Shown one piece after another: positions 6,461 through 25,147 of a DNA stretch of 25,147 nucleotides. Positions within the stretch are counted from its first letter, which is position 1; each line of letters begins with the position of its first letter. A model generated the notes under the pieces. It saw only the letters and a list, made by a program, of their open reading frames with translations. It was not told the origin of the DNA and made no database searches. The position numbers and the translations under genes were made by a program. The stretch is from an uncultured Candidatus Saccharibacteria bacterium (lineage in GTDB: Bacteria > Patescibacteriota > Minisyncoccia > UBA6257 > 02-FULL-45-10c), in the NCBI GenBank assembly GCA_964360665.1, contig CAYHXS010000002.1, forward strand, positions 1 through 25,147, read 5' to 3'.

Positions 6461-7738
6461 TTATTTCAATAATTTTCCCAATTGCGTAATGGAAATTAAT
6501 TTTGCTGATTTTTCCGAACGCTTTTTCACTTCAATCTTTTTTTCTTTTATTGTTTTTTCACTGACTATCAGCCGTAGCGGCGCCCCGATTAAATCCGCGT
6601 CATTCAGTTTTTCTCCGGGAGATGCCGTTCTTTCGTCATATAATACCTCTGATTCGCCAACGAGTCCAGCAGCGATTTTATAAACTTTTTCCGCTTCTTT
6701 TCTGACTTTTTCCGAATCTCCCAAGACAACTAAATGAACCCGAAATGGAGCAATAATTTCCGGCCACAAAATGCCTTTTTCGTCATTATATTCTTCAACT
6801 AAAGTTCCCAAAACCCGGGTTGGGCCGATTCCATAAGAACCCATAATCACAATCTGCCGGTCGCCTTTTTTATCCAAATAGAACAGGTTAAAAGCATCGG
6901 AAAATTTAGTGCCGAGCTTGAAAACATTGCCGATTTCAATGCCATGATCCATTTTAATGTTTCCCTGCCTGCCGGCAGGCAGGGCTTTTTTGCAGTTCGG
7001 GCATTTACCGCCGTGGCCGTCCTGAAAAATTTCCTTATTCTGCGCCCAATCACAGGAATCGCAATAATAAACCGTATCTTCCCCGGCCGGATTCAGAACC
7101 TGAAATTCATGCGTATATTCTTTGGTAAAAGCGCCGCCGCTCGCTTCCACGACTTTTGCCTTCAGGCAAAGCCGGCTAAAGATTTTTTTATAAGCGCCGA
7201 TTACTTTTTCATAATAAGCGTCCAAATCTTTTTTATCGGCGTGAAAACTGTATAAATCCTTCATTAAAAATTCCCGTCCGCGCAAAATTCCAGCCTGCGC
7301 CCGCGGCTCGGCGCGGAATTTCATTTGAATCTGGTAAACGGCTTTCGGCAAATCCTTATAAGAACTGATAAAGTGTTTGGCGATTGAAGAAATGACTTCC
7401 TCGTGCGTCCAACCGAGGCCGTACTGCAAATCGCGCAAATCTTTCAGATTTTCCCCTGTTTTATAAATAATATCCACATCCCAGCGTTTTGATTGCTCCC
7501 AGTATTTCTTATGCACCAAAGCCGGCATTAAAAGCTCTTCCCCGCCAACGGCGTTCATTTCCTCCCTGATTACCTGATTGATTTTATTTAAAACCCTAAA
7601 ACCAAGCGGGAGCATGGAATAAACTCCTGCCGAAGATTTGCTGATAAACCCGCCCTTAATTAAAAATTTGGCGTTTTTTGATTCTTCGCCTTCGGGCAGG
7701 TTTTTAATTGTTTTTGAAAATAATCGCGACTGCCGCAT
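6461..7738 (-). CDS. proS: Proline--tRNA ligase, short bacterial form without INS editing domain
   Basis: LGWTHEE, FRAEPRAQAGILRGREFLMKDLYSF, IEIGNVFKLG, MGSYGIG, anticodon domain DADLIG. Start moved to MRQSRLF (7738). Confidence 0.96.
   Translation of the reverse strand: MRQSRLFSKTIKNLPEGEESKNAKFLIKGGFISKSSAGVYSMLPLGFRVLNKINQVIREEMNAVGGEELLMPALVHKKYWEQSKRWDVDIIYKTGENLKDLRDLQYGLGWTHEEVISSIAKHFISSYKDLPKAVYQIQMKFRAEPRAQAGILRGREFLMKDLYSFHADKKDLDAYYEKVIGAYKKIFSRLCLKAKVVEASGGAFTKEYTHEFQVLNPAGEDTVYYCDSCDWAQNKEIFQDGHGGKCPNCKKALPAGRQGNIKMDHGIEIGNVFKLGTKFSDAFNLFYLDKKGDRQIVIMGSYGIGPTRVLGTLVEEYNDEKGILWPEIIAPFRVHLVVLGDSEKVRKEAEKVYKIAAGLVGESEVLYDERTASPGEKLNDADLIGAPLRLIVSEKTIKEKKIEVKKRSEKSAKLISITQLGKLLK
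6963..6984. repeat. Perfect 22-bp palindrome inside proS (LPAGRQG)
   Basis: ccctgcctgcc|ggcaggcaggg; reads LPAGRQG on both strands. Confidence 0.85.
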
Positions 7739-7768
7739 AAAGTAATATCTAACTAATTTTATCAATCC

Positions 7769-14395: not shown

Positions 14396-15757
14396 ATGAC
14401 AATAAAAATCAGAAGGGTCCTATTTTACGGTCTTACTCTCACTTTCTTTGTCGTTGGCGCGGCAACAGTTTTTTATTCCAATGGCTGGCGGTTTGACTGG
14501 GAAACTTTTGCCATCAGCAAGCTAGGTGCCATTTATTTTAAAAACCTGCCTCCGGATTCCAGCGTGACAATAGAAAAAACCAATATCAAATTTGAACCGG
14601 GCATACTAAAATCCGGGCTTTATGTGGCGAACCTTTTTCCAAAAAATTATCCGGCCAAAGTCGTTAAAAACGGCTATCAGGTCTGGTTCAAAGAAATCTC
14701 CGTCAAACCGTCTTTGGTAACTGAAATTCCCCAAATTGTTTTGGTGCCGGAAAAATTAATCTTTGAAAAACCAATAGCCGAAAAAATCGCGGATTTCTGG
14801 CTAGGGCCGGAACATTTTGTTTTGCTTAATCAGGACGGCAACCTTTTGTTTAATGGCAAAAAAATCGCCGGCCAAGAAATTTTATCCTGGTCTGCTGATG
14901 GAAAATCCGCTCTCACCAAAGGCGGTAATAATTATTTTGCCGTTGACCTGAATAATCTTTCCAAAAGCGCCCTGGCCGGGCAGGCCGTCAATCTGAGCCT
15001 GACGTTCAATAATCTCAGAAAAAATCTGGGCAAAAAAGATTCCTCCGCTATCCAGACAATCCATTTTTACCCGGAAAATAACAACAAATTCCTGGTAAAA
15101 ACCGCCAATGACATTTATTCATTAGACCACAAAAAAATGAGTCTGACGCCTCTTCACCTGGATGAAATCGGATATTTCACTGAAAGAGACGGGGAAATGA
15201 TTTTCTCGCGCGGAATTAAAGCTTACGTTTACAATCTTAATTCCGGCTCGCCTGAACCGCTGGCGCTGGCAAAAGAAAACAATTCCAAAATAATAAACAT
15301 CGGGGTTTCACCCTCCGACAGATACCTGTCTTTTTTGAGCGAAGACGGGACGCTGCAGATTTTTGATGAAGACGCGCAAAGCGCGAAAATCATTGCCAGA
15401 AACGCAAAATCATCCGCCTTTTCCCCCGACTCCAAAAAAATAGCTTTTCTCAGCGGCAACAAGGAAATAGTGATTTACAATTTGACAGCCGATGAACAAG
15501 AACTGAAAAACAAACGCCAAAAACAAACCATCATACTCAATATCGGCGCTACTGAAAATACCTTGTTCAACTGGCATAAAGACTCCCATTACCTGTTTGT
15601 AAAATATCCGGATGCGCTTTATCTCCTGGAAGGAGACGCTTTTCCTCCTATCAATTTCCAGCTTATTGATTCTTCAAATCAAAAATACGCCTATCATCCG
15701 GAAACAGAAGTTTTATATCTGCTTAAAAACAACTCTCTCTACTCAATTATTTTTTAA
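14396..15757 (+). CDS. Membrane-anchored protein with PEGA-like domain and TolB/WD40-like beta-propeller
   Basis: N-terminal TM helix; YPAKVVKNGYQVWFKEISV (PEGA-like); repeated blade motifs WSADGK, VSPSDRYLSF, FSPDSKKIAF, WHKDSHYL. Confidence 0.7.
   Translation: MTIKIRRVLFYGLTLTFFVVGAATVFYSNGWRFDWETFAISKLGAIYFKNLPPDSSVTIEKTNIKFEPGILKSGLYVANLFPKNYPAKVVKNGYQVWFKEISVKPSLVTEIPQIVLVPEKLIFEKPIAEKIADFWLGPEHFVLLNQDGNLLFNGKKIAGQEILSWSADGKSALTKGGNNYFAVDLNNLSKSALAGQAVNLSLTFNNLRKNLGKKDSSAIQTIHFYPENNNKFLVKTANDIYSLDHKKMSLTPLHLDEIGYFTERDGEMIFSRGIKAYVYNLNSGSPEPLALAKENNSKIINIGVSPSDRYLSFLSEDGTLQIFDEDAQSAKIIARNAKSSAFSPDSKKIAFLSGNKEIVIYNLTADEQELKNKRQKQTIILNIGATENTLFNWHKDSHYLFVKYPDALYLLEGDAFPPINFQLIDSSNQKYAYHPETEVLYLLKNNSLYSIIF
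14969..14987. repeat. gccctggccgggcaggccg, identical to the alaS insert unit; in frame (ALAGQA)
   Basis: 19/19 identity with 24544-24562. Confidence 0.85.
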
Positions 15758-22980: not shown

Positions 22981-24846
22981 CTATTCAACCGCCGCTCTTA
23001 TTCTCCGCACTCCGGCGCCAACAGCTTCTTGTTTAATGATACGAAATCTGCCGATTTTAAAAGTATTGGTAACATGTGGTCCGCCGCAGAATTCCTTGCT
23101 AAAAGGTTGCTCCTCTTTGCCAACTGGCGAATCAGAGCCAATCGTGTAAACTTTTACACGATTGGGATATTTTTCCTTGAAAAAATAAAGTGCGTTGGTT
23201 TTTTTCGCTTCTTCAATCGGCAATTCCTGATAAGTAACCGGCAGATCTTTTTCCACTGTTTCATTAACTAACGCTTCTGTTTTTTTTAACTCTTCATCGG
23301 TCAATTTGCGCGGAAAAGAAAAATCAAAGCGCGTCCGTTCGGCCGTAATGTCCGAACCCATTTGTTTTACTTCCGAGCCAAGCACTTTGCGAAGCGCCGC
23401 CTGCAAAAGATGCGTTGCCGTGTGCAAACGGACTACTTTTTCCATCTCTTCTTCGCTGGACGCTTTCAATTCTCCGGTATTCAAAACCAATCCATGCCCG
23501 CCGAATTTCTTTTCCATTCCCGCCCGGGAAATTTCCTGGTGTTTTTTAAACTCCACCTCCAAATCTTCTTTTTGCAAATCTTTCACTTTTTCCGGCACCA
23601 ATTCCTGTAAAAGCTCAAAAGGCAACCCAAAAGTTTCATAGATATAAAAAGCGTCTTTCGCGAAAATCACTTCATATCTTTCAATTTCTTTCACGCCAAG
23701 AGCCAATGCTTTTTCAAACTTAGTTTTTTCGTCCATCAACACCGCCAAAATTTCTTCGGTATTTTTTACTTCCGGATAAGCGGCGCCGAAAATGTCTTTT
23801 ACTATGCCGACTGAAAGCGTAAAAAGTTCCGCGTGAATGTCATATTTAATCCCGTAAACCAAAATCCGGCGGAGCAATCGCCGCAAAATATAGCCCGCTT
23901 CTTTATTTAACGGCCGGACGCCGTCCGCAACCAGAAAAATTGAAGCGCGCAAATGGTCAGCCAAAACCCGCAAAACCCGGTCTTCTAAACCCGGCTTAGC
24001 TTTTTTAATCATAAAAATCAGCGGCTCAAAAAGGTCTGTTTCAAAAATATTATCCTTGCCCTGCATCACCATAACTAAACGCTCAAAACCCCGGCCGTTA
24101 TCAATAGATTTCTGTTCCAGCGGAACGTATTTACCGTCCGGCAATTTATTATATTGCATGAAAACATCATTGCCGATTTCCATAAAGCGCCCACAATCGC
24201 AATTAGGATGACAAACCGGCCCGAATTTTAAATCATGGGGTTTTCCGAAACAATAAAACATTTCCGAATCCGGACCCGCGGGGCCGGGACCGCCGGTTTC
24301 CCACCAATTTTTTTCACGGCCGTAAAGAAAAATTCTTTCCCCGACTTTCGCTTCAATTCCCGCTTTCTTAAACTGCTCCTGCCAAATGCGGATTGCCTCC
24401 TTGTCCTGCGGCACTTCGTCGTCGCCCTTAAAGGCAGTCACATAAAGAAGCTCTGGATCAAGCCCAAGCCCTTCTTCCGAAGTAATAAATTCAAAAGATA
24501 AAGGAATGGCTTTTTCCTTAAAATATCCCCCCTGGCCGGGCAGGCCCTGGCCGGGCAGGCCGAAAGAAAAATTGCCGAGCATTTCAAAAAAAGTAAGGTG
24601 GGTTTTATCTCCCACTTCTTCAATATCCGAAGTCCGAAAACACTTCTGCGCCGATGCCGTATTTTTACTGCCAAAATCACGCATCGGATCCGCCTTGCCG
24701 ACATAATACGGCTTAAACTGCTGCATGCCGGCAGTGGTCAAAAGCACCGAAGGGTCGTCCGGAATAAGCGAAGCTGAAGGAACAACCGCGTGTCCGCGAT
24801 CTTTAAAAAATTTCAGGAATTTTTTACGGATTTCCTGCGAATTCAT
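22981..24846 (-). CDS. alaS: Alanine--tRNA ligase (catalytic plus editing domains, no C-Ala)
   Basis: LLTTAGMQQFK, QKCFR, HLTFFEMLGNFSFG, GPAGPDSE, IDNGRGFERL, editing motifs HTATH and CGGPH; ends at GVRRIRAAVE. Confidence 0.97.
   Translation of the reverse strand: MNSQEIRKKFLKFFKDRGHAVVPSASLIPDDPSVLLTTAGMQQFKPYYVGKADPMRDFGSKNTASAQKCFRTSDIEEVGDKTHLTFFEMLGNFSFGLPGQGLPGQGGYFKEKAIPLSFEFITSEEGLGLDPELLYVTAFKGDDEVPQDKEAIRIWQEQFKKAGIEAKVGERIFLYGREKNWWETGGPGPAGPDSEMFYCFGKPHDLKFGPVCHPNCDCGRFMEIGNDVFMQYNKLPDGKYVPLEQKSIDNGRGFERLVMVMQGKDNIFETDLFEPLIFMIKKAKPGLEDRVLRVLADHLRASIFLVADGVRPLNKEAGYILRRLLRRILVYGIKYDIHAELFTLSVGIVKDIFGAAYPEVKNTEEILAVLMDEKTKFEKALALGVKEIERYEVIFAKDAFYIYETFGLPFELLQELVPEKVKDLQKEDLEVEFKKHQEISRAGMEKKFGGHGLVLNTGELKASSEEEMEKVVRLHTATHLLQAALRKVLGSEVKQMGSDITAERTRFDFSFPRKLTDEELKKTEALVNETVEKDLPVTYQELPIEEAKKTNALYFFKEKYPNRVKVYTIGSDSPVGKEEQPFSKEFCGGPHVTNTFKIGRFRIIKQEAVGAGVRRIRAAVE
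24531..24560. repeat. Tandem 2x15-bp near-palindromic insert in alaS (LPGQGLPGQG)
   Basis: cctggccgggcaggc x2; splits the conserved GNFSFG|xYFK segment. Confidence 0.9.
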
Positions 24847-24905: not shown

Positions 24906-25008
24906 GAATATCTACCTATTATCCTCTTTTTTCTTAATAGAGCCTATCCCAATAATAATCCCATAACGCGATACTTGCCAATTTTATTCAGAACAAGGAA
25001 TGAGGCCG

Positions 25009-25129
25009 TTCAGGCTCTGAGAGCCTTCAGGCTCGATGAGAGGAAATCGTGGTTCATCCACCTTTCCGACGAATGACGCGGTTATGGATAAAGTGGTCTT
25101 CAACCACTATTTCGTCGTCGCGCCTTGAA
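25009..25129. repeat. Structured intergenic element related to the 16-280 element; probably continues beyond the window
   Basis: 25112-25129 tcgtcgtcgcgccttgaa matches 210-227 at 17/18; ttcaggctc direct repeat at 25009 and 25026; hairpins 25013-25025, 25042-25067, 25067-25117, 25092-25108. Confidence 0.55.
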
Positions 25130-25147
25130 CTAATTTATTTATTTCAG

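Follow-up and report, generated by a model that had tools for sequence, protein, structure and literature searches.

A Dispersed 15-Nucleotide Palindromic Unit Present in Tandem in the Alanyl-tRNA Synthetase Gene of a Groundwater Patescibacteria Genome

The 25,147-nt stretch of DNA analysed here (contig CAYHXS010000002.1, positions 1 to 25,147, referred to as the window) belongs to G000, the genome of an ultra-small groundwater member of the Patescibacteria that is available as a 566 kb draft of 80 contigs, 94.6% complete. Its alaS gene, encoding alanyl-tRNA synthetase (AlaRS), carries a 30-nt insert. In all likelihood this insert is two adjacent copies of a non-autonomous, GC-rich palindromic micro-element, 15 nt in length, that has been spreading by copy-and-insert in Patescibacteria genomes. 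The alaS insert is one visible tip of a population of micro-palindromes that extends across the genome and the class.

The Insert in alaS

The features of the window that bear on the insert are as follows.

22981 to 24846, minus strand: alaS, encoding AlaRS (621 aa), with the insert as residues 97-106
24531 to 24545, plus strand: unit copy 1, a 15-nt palindromic element antisense to alaS and translated as LPGQG; an exact match to the dispersed 15-mer
24546 to 24560, plus strand: unit copy 2, head-to-tail with copy 1; copy number polymorphic
Target sequence of the insert in alaS: TTCGGCGG
14971 to 14985, plus strand: third exact unit copy, in sense orientation within an open reading frame (ORF) at 14396 to 15757 (beta-propeller-like), read as LAGQA

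Positions 24531-24560 (plus strand) are occupied by two exact head-to-tail copies of CCTGGCCGGGCAGGC, a tandem described by TRF as period 15, 2.1 copies, 100%. On the coding strand of alaS the insert reads LPGQGLPGQG and falls between FFEMLGNFSFG and GYFK. The ORF at 22981 to 24846 matches PF01411 (class II AlaRS catalytic core) and PF07973 (editing/second additional domain) in Pfam. Residues 1-268 of the protein align with the solved AlaRS 9jc7 (E 1.5e-47), with a 10-residue gap exactly at the insert. The 15-nt unit can be described as a 14-nt core, CCTGGCCGGGCAGG, plus one C; the core is a palindrome whose two 7-nt halves are inverted repeats save for a single mismatched pair (G5/G10). The original prediction, made from the sequence alone, had reported an exact 2x15-nt tandem in the motif-2 region of AlaRS, one mismatch away from a perfect palindrome and adding five codons per unit while preserving the frame. 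Its coordinates, units and peptide reading are all confirmed, the single mismatch is that of the 14-nt core, and the insertion of whole 5-codon units is borne out by clean gaps in orthologues. Within the window three matches to the unit are found at no more than two mismatches, as against 0.04 expected by chance.

The repeat was also followed outside the assembly. Logan contigs of four groundwater runs (X1-X4, from two studies) were placed on the window; these contigs break at the alaS repeat, coverage by X3 and X4 is partial, and among the matches listed none bridges both units. X2 and X3 each supply one contig that lacks exactly 15 nt at 24530, the one-unit allele, and the X3 contig (366 nt) has two other differences. 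One contig of X1 ends at the branch point of the repeat. The two-unit AlaRS is found on two separately assembled contigs whose proteins differ by one residue. Since 31-mers do not collapse a 2x15 repeat, the one-unit allele coexists with the two-unit allele, and both circulate in groundwater metagenomes. The third exact copy, 9.6 kb from the alaS insert and in an unrelated ORF, is confirmed in Logan contigs of X1 and X2.

Dispersed Copies and Empty Sites

About 30 copies of the unit are present in G000, 18 exact and 11 with one mismatch, and a reversed control pattern gives none. Once simple A/T runs are excluded, the core heads the repeated 12- and 14-mers of this genome. Copies occur at a density of about 1 per 19 kb, and 28 of the 30 are inside long ORFs, the proportion predicted from a coding density of about 91%. 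None of the six frames of the unit contains a stop codon; five of the six are used in G000, and all six when relatives are added. The hosts are housekeeping genes, encoding AlaRS, Mur ligase, PolX, GyrA, PPDK, RuvC, DnaG, RpoD, Rpe, SSB, RNase H, GreA, PheS, PheT, a class I aminoacyl-tRNA synthetase (aaRS), ClpB, D-Ala-D-Ala carboxypeptidase, ThyX and others.

Empty sites were identified by aligning every G000 host protein to G004, a complete genome of the same genus in 14 contigs. Clean 5-residue (15-nt) gaps are seen in nine hosts (Mur ligase, GreA, PheT, RuvC, DnaG, RpoD, the class I aaRS, RNase H and one further ORF), and 10-residue gaps are seen at AlaRS and at a nested double copy. Compared with G004, G000 has 161 insertions of 3-16 residues in all; when this full list is sorted by GC content, its top is almost entirely the unit, with other GC-rich hairpin inserts coming next. 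With G000 or G004 as the reference, copies in other genomes also prove to be inserts of 5 residues.

Copies can be adjacent or nested as well as solitary. Tandem copies occur in alaS and on contig C59. In nested copies, found in G000, G005, G020 and G142, one unit occupies the exact centre of another (between CC and GG) in the same orientation. Read in the orientation of the unit, a C stands before the core in 25 of 30 copies and after it in 29 of 30, with a weak G/C bias farther out. The C on both sides fits a 1-nt duplication, and orthologous empty sites lack that C. A 3-nt GCC target duplication was considered and rejected, since positions -2 and +2 vary while the core is constant. Direct repeats of 8-15 nt flank about 11% of copies (one in nine, compared with about one in ninety expected); the others, the majority, are clean 15-nt inserts. 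Orientation relative to GC skew (10 vs 20) and to the host gene (12 sense vs 19 antisense) is not decisive for a strand or replication bias.

A single unit folds with -3.2 kcal/mol (z 0.4), and neither one unit, two units nor the copy at 14971 forms a hairpin more stable than its shuffles. With so poor a fold the unit looks like a duplex palindrome, the kind of site used by a dimeric protein, and not like a single-strand hairpin. Hairpin-driven duplication, offered in the original prediction as one origin of the insert, is not supported by a unit that folds no better than shuffles and is dispersed in about 30 copies.

Among copies with flanking direct repeats are L186 (G142; 15 nt, perfect), L075, L100, L094 and L074 (G005/G020) and one at C1:23767 of G000. 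The G000 copies in PolX, PheS and Rpe have common AT-rich arms (GTTAAAAGTC ... AAAAGYGAAA).

Distribution among Relatives

With up to one mismatch allowed, 14 of 22 other genomes in the family contain the core, as does 1 of 18 from other families of the order. Copy numbers on this basis are 30 in G000, 14 in G020, 12 in G005, 5 in G015 and 2-3 in same-genus genomes, several of these being native motifs; exact core copies in same-genus genomes number 0-2. Near-matches of the native kind (L105, L106, L101, L167, L169) include EF-P-like KNLLTGQV, S9-like GGGLAGQA, PNPase-like RLAGQA and Obg-like GLPGQ. In a scan of the class the exact core was detected in 18 of 400 other genomes, with a control of 0 throughout. 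Bursts were evident in G005, G020, G015 and G142, the last being a separate burst, of 9 copies, in another family. Insertion sites differ from genome to genome. As judged from these sequence matches, the distribution is that of a replicator undergoing lineage-specific bursts and, occasionally, transfer.

The AlaRS Loop

Most AlaRS orthologues read FSFGGYFK or FSFGDYFK with no insert, and the closest orthologue of the G000 protein (75% identity) has zero units. AlaRS of G011, a member of another genus, contains one unit at the identical nucleotide junction and in the same orientation as in G000. A search of 5.8 billion proteins added two further AlaRS lineages, P0065 and P0106, with exactly one unit each at this junction, as well as several AlaRS with unrelated inserts of 11-14 residues at the same point. 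Relatives with 0, 1 or 2 units had been anticipated; orthologues have 0 or 1, and one-unit contigs come from two metagenome studies. In an AlaRS tree built after removal of the loop, the four unit-bearing sequences require 2-4 state changes. By this reconstruction the same nucleotide position of alaS has been struck in at least two lineages, and probably in more.

In an AlphaFold2 model of residues 1-270 (mean predicted local distance difference test score, pLDDT, 90), the insert lies between a strand at 86-94 and a helix at 110-122, and pLDDT falls below 50 at insert residues 99-104. The site is modelled as a disordered surface loop just past the second motif-2 strand. The low pLDDT and the 10-residue gap relative to the solved AlaRS both argue that this loop is permissive.

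Other inserts use the same loop. For example, alaS of G010 (L048) carries a different GC-rich hairpin there, TVSSEASSEGGA. Recurrent occupation of the loop may reflect tolerance, targeting or both. Because unrelated inserts also collect at this point, tolerance accounts for the recurrence no less well than targeting. In another protein, two genomes have copies in one shared loop in different frames. The earlier suggestion of site-preferring insertion is partly upheld: the same alaS position does recur, but the flanks show little beyond the C beside the core, and the loop accepts unrelated inserts.

Persistence of the Unit in Essential Genes

The behaviour of the copies suggests how they could persist. 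The element would land without regard to coding sequence. Its survival in essential genes would follow from a length that is a multiple of three, the absence of stops in six frames and an encoded peptide made only of Gly/Pro/Ala/Leu/Gln/Arg-type loop residues. Copies that persist are located in permissive loops and linkers. In AlaRS the insert would simply be translated as part of the disordered loop. The second alaS copy could have arisen by slipped-strand duplication or by re-insertion beside the first, the simplest routes from one unit to two.

Of the other explanations for these copies, selection for a function at the DNA level fares best, and it is improbable. The motif would be a DNA uptake sequence or the binding site of a dimeric protein, kept by selection and not by selfish insertion. 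In its favour, Patescibacteria are believed to depend on DNA uptake, the core has the form of a duplex palindrome and makes a poor hairpin, and it is identical in distant families of the class. However, DNA uptake sequences occur about once per kb, are common to close relatives and arise by substitution. The unit is far sparser, nearly missing from same-genus genomes, and its copies are 15-nt insertions relative to orthologues. Nested and tandem copies, together with several unrelated palindrome families in one genome, also fit replicators better.

It is very improbable that the peptide itself was selected, with LPGQG loops conferring a new property on AlaRS. The AlaRS loop does bear inserts in many lineages of the family. 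Yet from one lineage to another those inserts have unrelated sequences, disorder is predicted for the loop, and the identical DNA is read in six frames in unrelated proteins.

A purely local event in alaS, with hairpin formation or slippage duplicating the sequence and no element involved, is hardly credible. Tandem 15-nt repeats do change copy number by slippage, and the coexistence of one- and two-unit alleles, with 15 nt missing from the X2 and X3 contigs, resembles the behaviour of a simple tandem repeat. Slippage accounts only for the step from one unit to two. At least the first alaS copy came from elsewhere, because the exact unit is present at about 17 other unrelated loci and absent from the closest orthologues.

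That the insert is an artefact of assembly or sequencing (a linker, chimera or repeat collapse) can be dismissed almost entirely: the genome is a fragmented metagenome bin and Logan contigs break at the repeat, but the two-unit allele was assembled separately on two contigs, the one-unit allele appears in two studies, the copy at 14971 is seen in two runs, and the unit occurs in many separately assembled genomes in diverged copies that are always frame-compatible. Neither of the doubts raised with the original prediction, an artefact of assembly or a lack of other copies and of 0- or 1-unit orthologues, is borne out by the contigs, orthologues and dispersed copies.

Palindromes in tRNA-Linked GIY-YIG Cassettes

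The core of the unit (family 1) is also found outside protein genes, in cassettes that contain a small GIY-YIG nuclease gene. In G009, G172 (three times) and G299, genomes that span three families, it occurs at one fixed position, the D-loop of a 5' tRNA-Gln fragment that has been duplicated. The order is the same in each cassette: the tRNA-Gln 5' fragment, within about 15 nt a small GIY-YIG ORF, and then the intact tRNA-Gln. G299 has a second copy in which the fragment and core stand beside the intact tRNA with no ORF.

A second palindrome family is represented in the window by one insert.

6963 to 6984, no strand assigned: second family, perfect palindrome with core CCTGCCTGCCGGCAGGCAGG, inside proS (ORF 6464 to 7765, minus strand)

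This proS insert corresponds to an 11-residue gap relative to G004, and its core is 20 nt and perfect. The family-2 core has 16 copies in G004, a burst of its own, although G004 lacks family 1. It stands at the corresponding position in a tRNA-Thr cassette of G005 and in one G004 cassette. A third palindrome is the AlaRS-loop insert of G010, which matches at 27 of 29 nt a hairpin directly upstream of a GIY-YIG ORF in G017 (L181:1451-1480), with a score of 25 compared to 16 for the best control. From these matches, three distinct palindromes found within genes belong also to the front ends of tRNA-linked GIY-YIG cassettes. It is plausible that the cassettes serve as the vehicle between families, and the shared cores suggest that the palindromes are laid down where such nucleases cut.

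Cassettes of this kind were noted at the following loci.

L037:1431-1855: G009, with the GIY-YIG ORF at L037:1531-1776
L166: G172
L194 and L195: G299
L201:1440-1824: G005
C14:22849-23120: G004

Their GIY-YIG ORFs (about 80-110 aa) lie between a duplicated 5' tRNA fragment (Gln, Thr or Ser/Leu-like) and an intact tRNA. In the loci given here the D-loop of the fragment always holds a GC-rich palindrome, either of family 1 or of family 2. Some relatives are very rich in cassettes, with as many as 14 in one genome. ARAGORN, applied to the tRNA-like remnants with the core removed, finds no gene because the remnants are 5' fragments only. A different arrangement occurs in G020, where four near-identical GIY-YIG ORFs (L203, L206, L210, L212) have 15-nt inverted repeats on each side (CCCACACATAACTTA / its complement); this is transposon-like and unlike the tRNA cassettes. 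Family-2 copies in G004 include clean 7-residue inserts, relative to G000, in two proteins, one class I aaRS-like and the other LigA-like.

Mechanism of Insertion

As to the chemistry of insertion, the mechanism that we tentatively prefer is the deposition of units at DNA breaks associated with the small, tRNA-targeting GIY-YIG nuclease cassettes, which carry the same cores at their front ends. Deposition could occur by ectopic or abortive homing, or by break repair templated from existing copies. A split-ends origin, in which half cores would flank the GIY-YIG ORF, was not seen for family 1.

A transposase acting in trans is a less likely agent. The unit looks like a site for a dimeric protein, as noted above, and the variable flanking repeats argue against a transposase with a fixed stagger; they fit break repair or template switching with variable re-entry. 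Template switching that is independent of any nuclease is itself rather unlikely. Mobilisation of the RAYT/IS200 type was rejected, since PF01797 has no match in the high-copy genomes G000, G005, G020 and G015. The only recombinase found in G000 is one Xer-like tyrosine recombinase. The 133 ORFs specific to G000 relative to G004, inspected by eye and not annotated systematically, include no obvious mobilising enzyme.

Cassette-linked deposition can be carried further. The 15-nt palindrome might be a genuine mobile element, the smallest known, moved or deposited by GIY-YIG cassettes as a 'patch' at break sites or as a solo cassette front end, and continuously remodelling surface loops of essential proteins throughout the class; this is conceivable, though less likely than not.

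Several points weigh against a mobile element deposited in this way. The number and subfamily of GIY-YIG genes do not track the number of cores: G000 has one GIY-YIG gene and 30 cores, and G001 has 14 genes and about 0 true cores. For lack of any correlation, copy number and subfamily were both rejected as correlates of the bursts. Target-site duplication is not uniform across copies. Native motifs in EF-P, S9, PNPase and Obg slightly inflate the core counts in relatives. Finally, G000, as a 94.6% complete draft, has no rve, DDE_Tnp_1, IS110, TnpB, RVT_1 or Y1 transposase; a mobilising gene could lie in the unassembled part of this 80-contig genome.

Comparison with Known Elements

Selfish palindromes within genes are already known; what is remarkable here is the size of 15 nt. 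Rickettsia palindromic elements (RPEs), as summarized in PMC10969869 (Ogata et al. 2000), measure about 100-150 bp and code for a conserved peptide in a single frame. They resemble the present unit as dispersed palindromes in frame in many unrelated housekeeping genes of a small genome, adding extra surface segments and having no transposase in the element. The unit differs in being 15 nt, in the use of six frames, in its tandem and nested copies and in its phylum, and it is not related to them in sequence.

REP/REPIN sequences, the repetitive extragenic palindromes, are 20-40 nt and overwhelmingly extragenic, with a GTAG or CGTC tag and a co-occurring RAYT (Y1) gene (PMC3733652). They too are short, GC-rich, imperfect palindromes in many copies per genome. 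In contrast, 28 of 30 copies here are intragenic, no tag occurs in the flanks, and none of the high-copy genomes has a Y1 transposase. MITEs, or miniature inverted-repeat transposable elements, usually span 50-500 bp (PMC10969869). The unit resembles them in being non-autonomous, in its two inverted 7-nt halves and in copy-number bursts that are unequal between related genomes. Unlike MITEs it is far smaller and lacks internal sequence, its copies show no uniform target-site duplication, and the G000 draft has no parent insertion sequence with matching ends.

Mitochondrial GC clusters and hairpins (yeast GC clusters, 'byp', and those of sponges and placozoans) are usually 30-60 nt and organellar, and some are bypassed in translation. 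Like the unit they are short, GC-rich palindromes in AT-leaning compact genomes, present singly and in tandem, including in coding sequence (compare PMC7813641, PMC7218506, PMC6649704). The unit differs in being 15 nt, in residing in a bacterial chromosome and in apparently being read through. Homing-endonuclease cassettes of the free-standing GIY-YIG kind are similar in that they are inserted at tRNA genes and have the same palindromic cores in the duplicated tRNA 5' segment. They differ from the solo 15-nt copies, which have no nuclease gene and whose number nuclease genes do not follow.

By analogy, the behaviour of the unit is that of RPEs and mitochondrial GC clusters. It does not belong to the REP/RAYT, MITE, RPE or uptake-sequence classes, from whose defining features it departs in size, location, tag, transposase or density. 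No published description of such elements in the candidate phyla radiation (CPR)/Patescibacteria was found in full-text searches of the literature.

Implications

Active selfish DNA would thus be carried even by bacterial genomes of the most reduced kind (0.57 Mb, >90% coding, without a recognisable transposase), with micro-palindromes that survive by being small, stop-free and loop-encoding. The unit accounts for many lineage-specific inserts of 5 to 10 residues in universally conserved proteins of Patescibacteria. Such inserts otherwise pass for alignment noise or adaptive novelty, and they can disturb marker-gene phylogenies and structure prediction. The element is comparable to a natural pentapeptide-scanning mutagenesis, in which the surviving copies map the permissive loops of essential enzymes. 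If the GIY-YIG/tRNA link is causal, it would represent a novel route by which a homing nuclease leaves templated scars across a genome and would set a lower size limit of 15 nt for mobile DNA.

Other Repeats and Genome Features

G000 and G004 differ in composition, with 42.7% and 53.5% GC within one shared genus. G000 strongly avoids TCGA (observed/expected 0.18) and GATC (0.33), and G004 does not, which suggests a lineage-specific restriction pressure on G000. A restriction-site explanation for the unit was rejected, since G000 shows no avoidance of CCGG, GGCC or CCWGG.

Additional repeat families, each in 8-10 copies, are present, at about 25000-25147 in the window and elsewhere in G000 at C37:5387-5821, C49:1867-4056 and other places. 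One of these families contains TCAAGGCGCGACGACGAAA and is present at the window end. Another contains GGTCCCGAGTA(Y)TCCCGAGG and also forms in-frame 9-residue inserts in two proteins.

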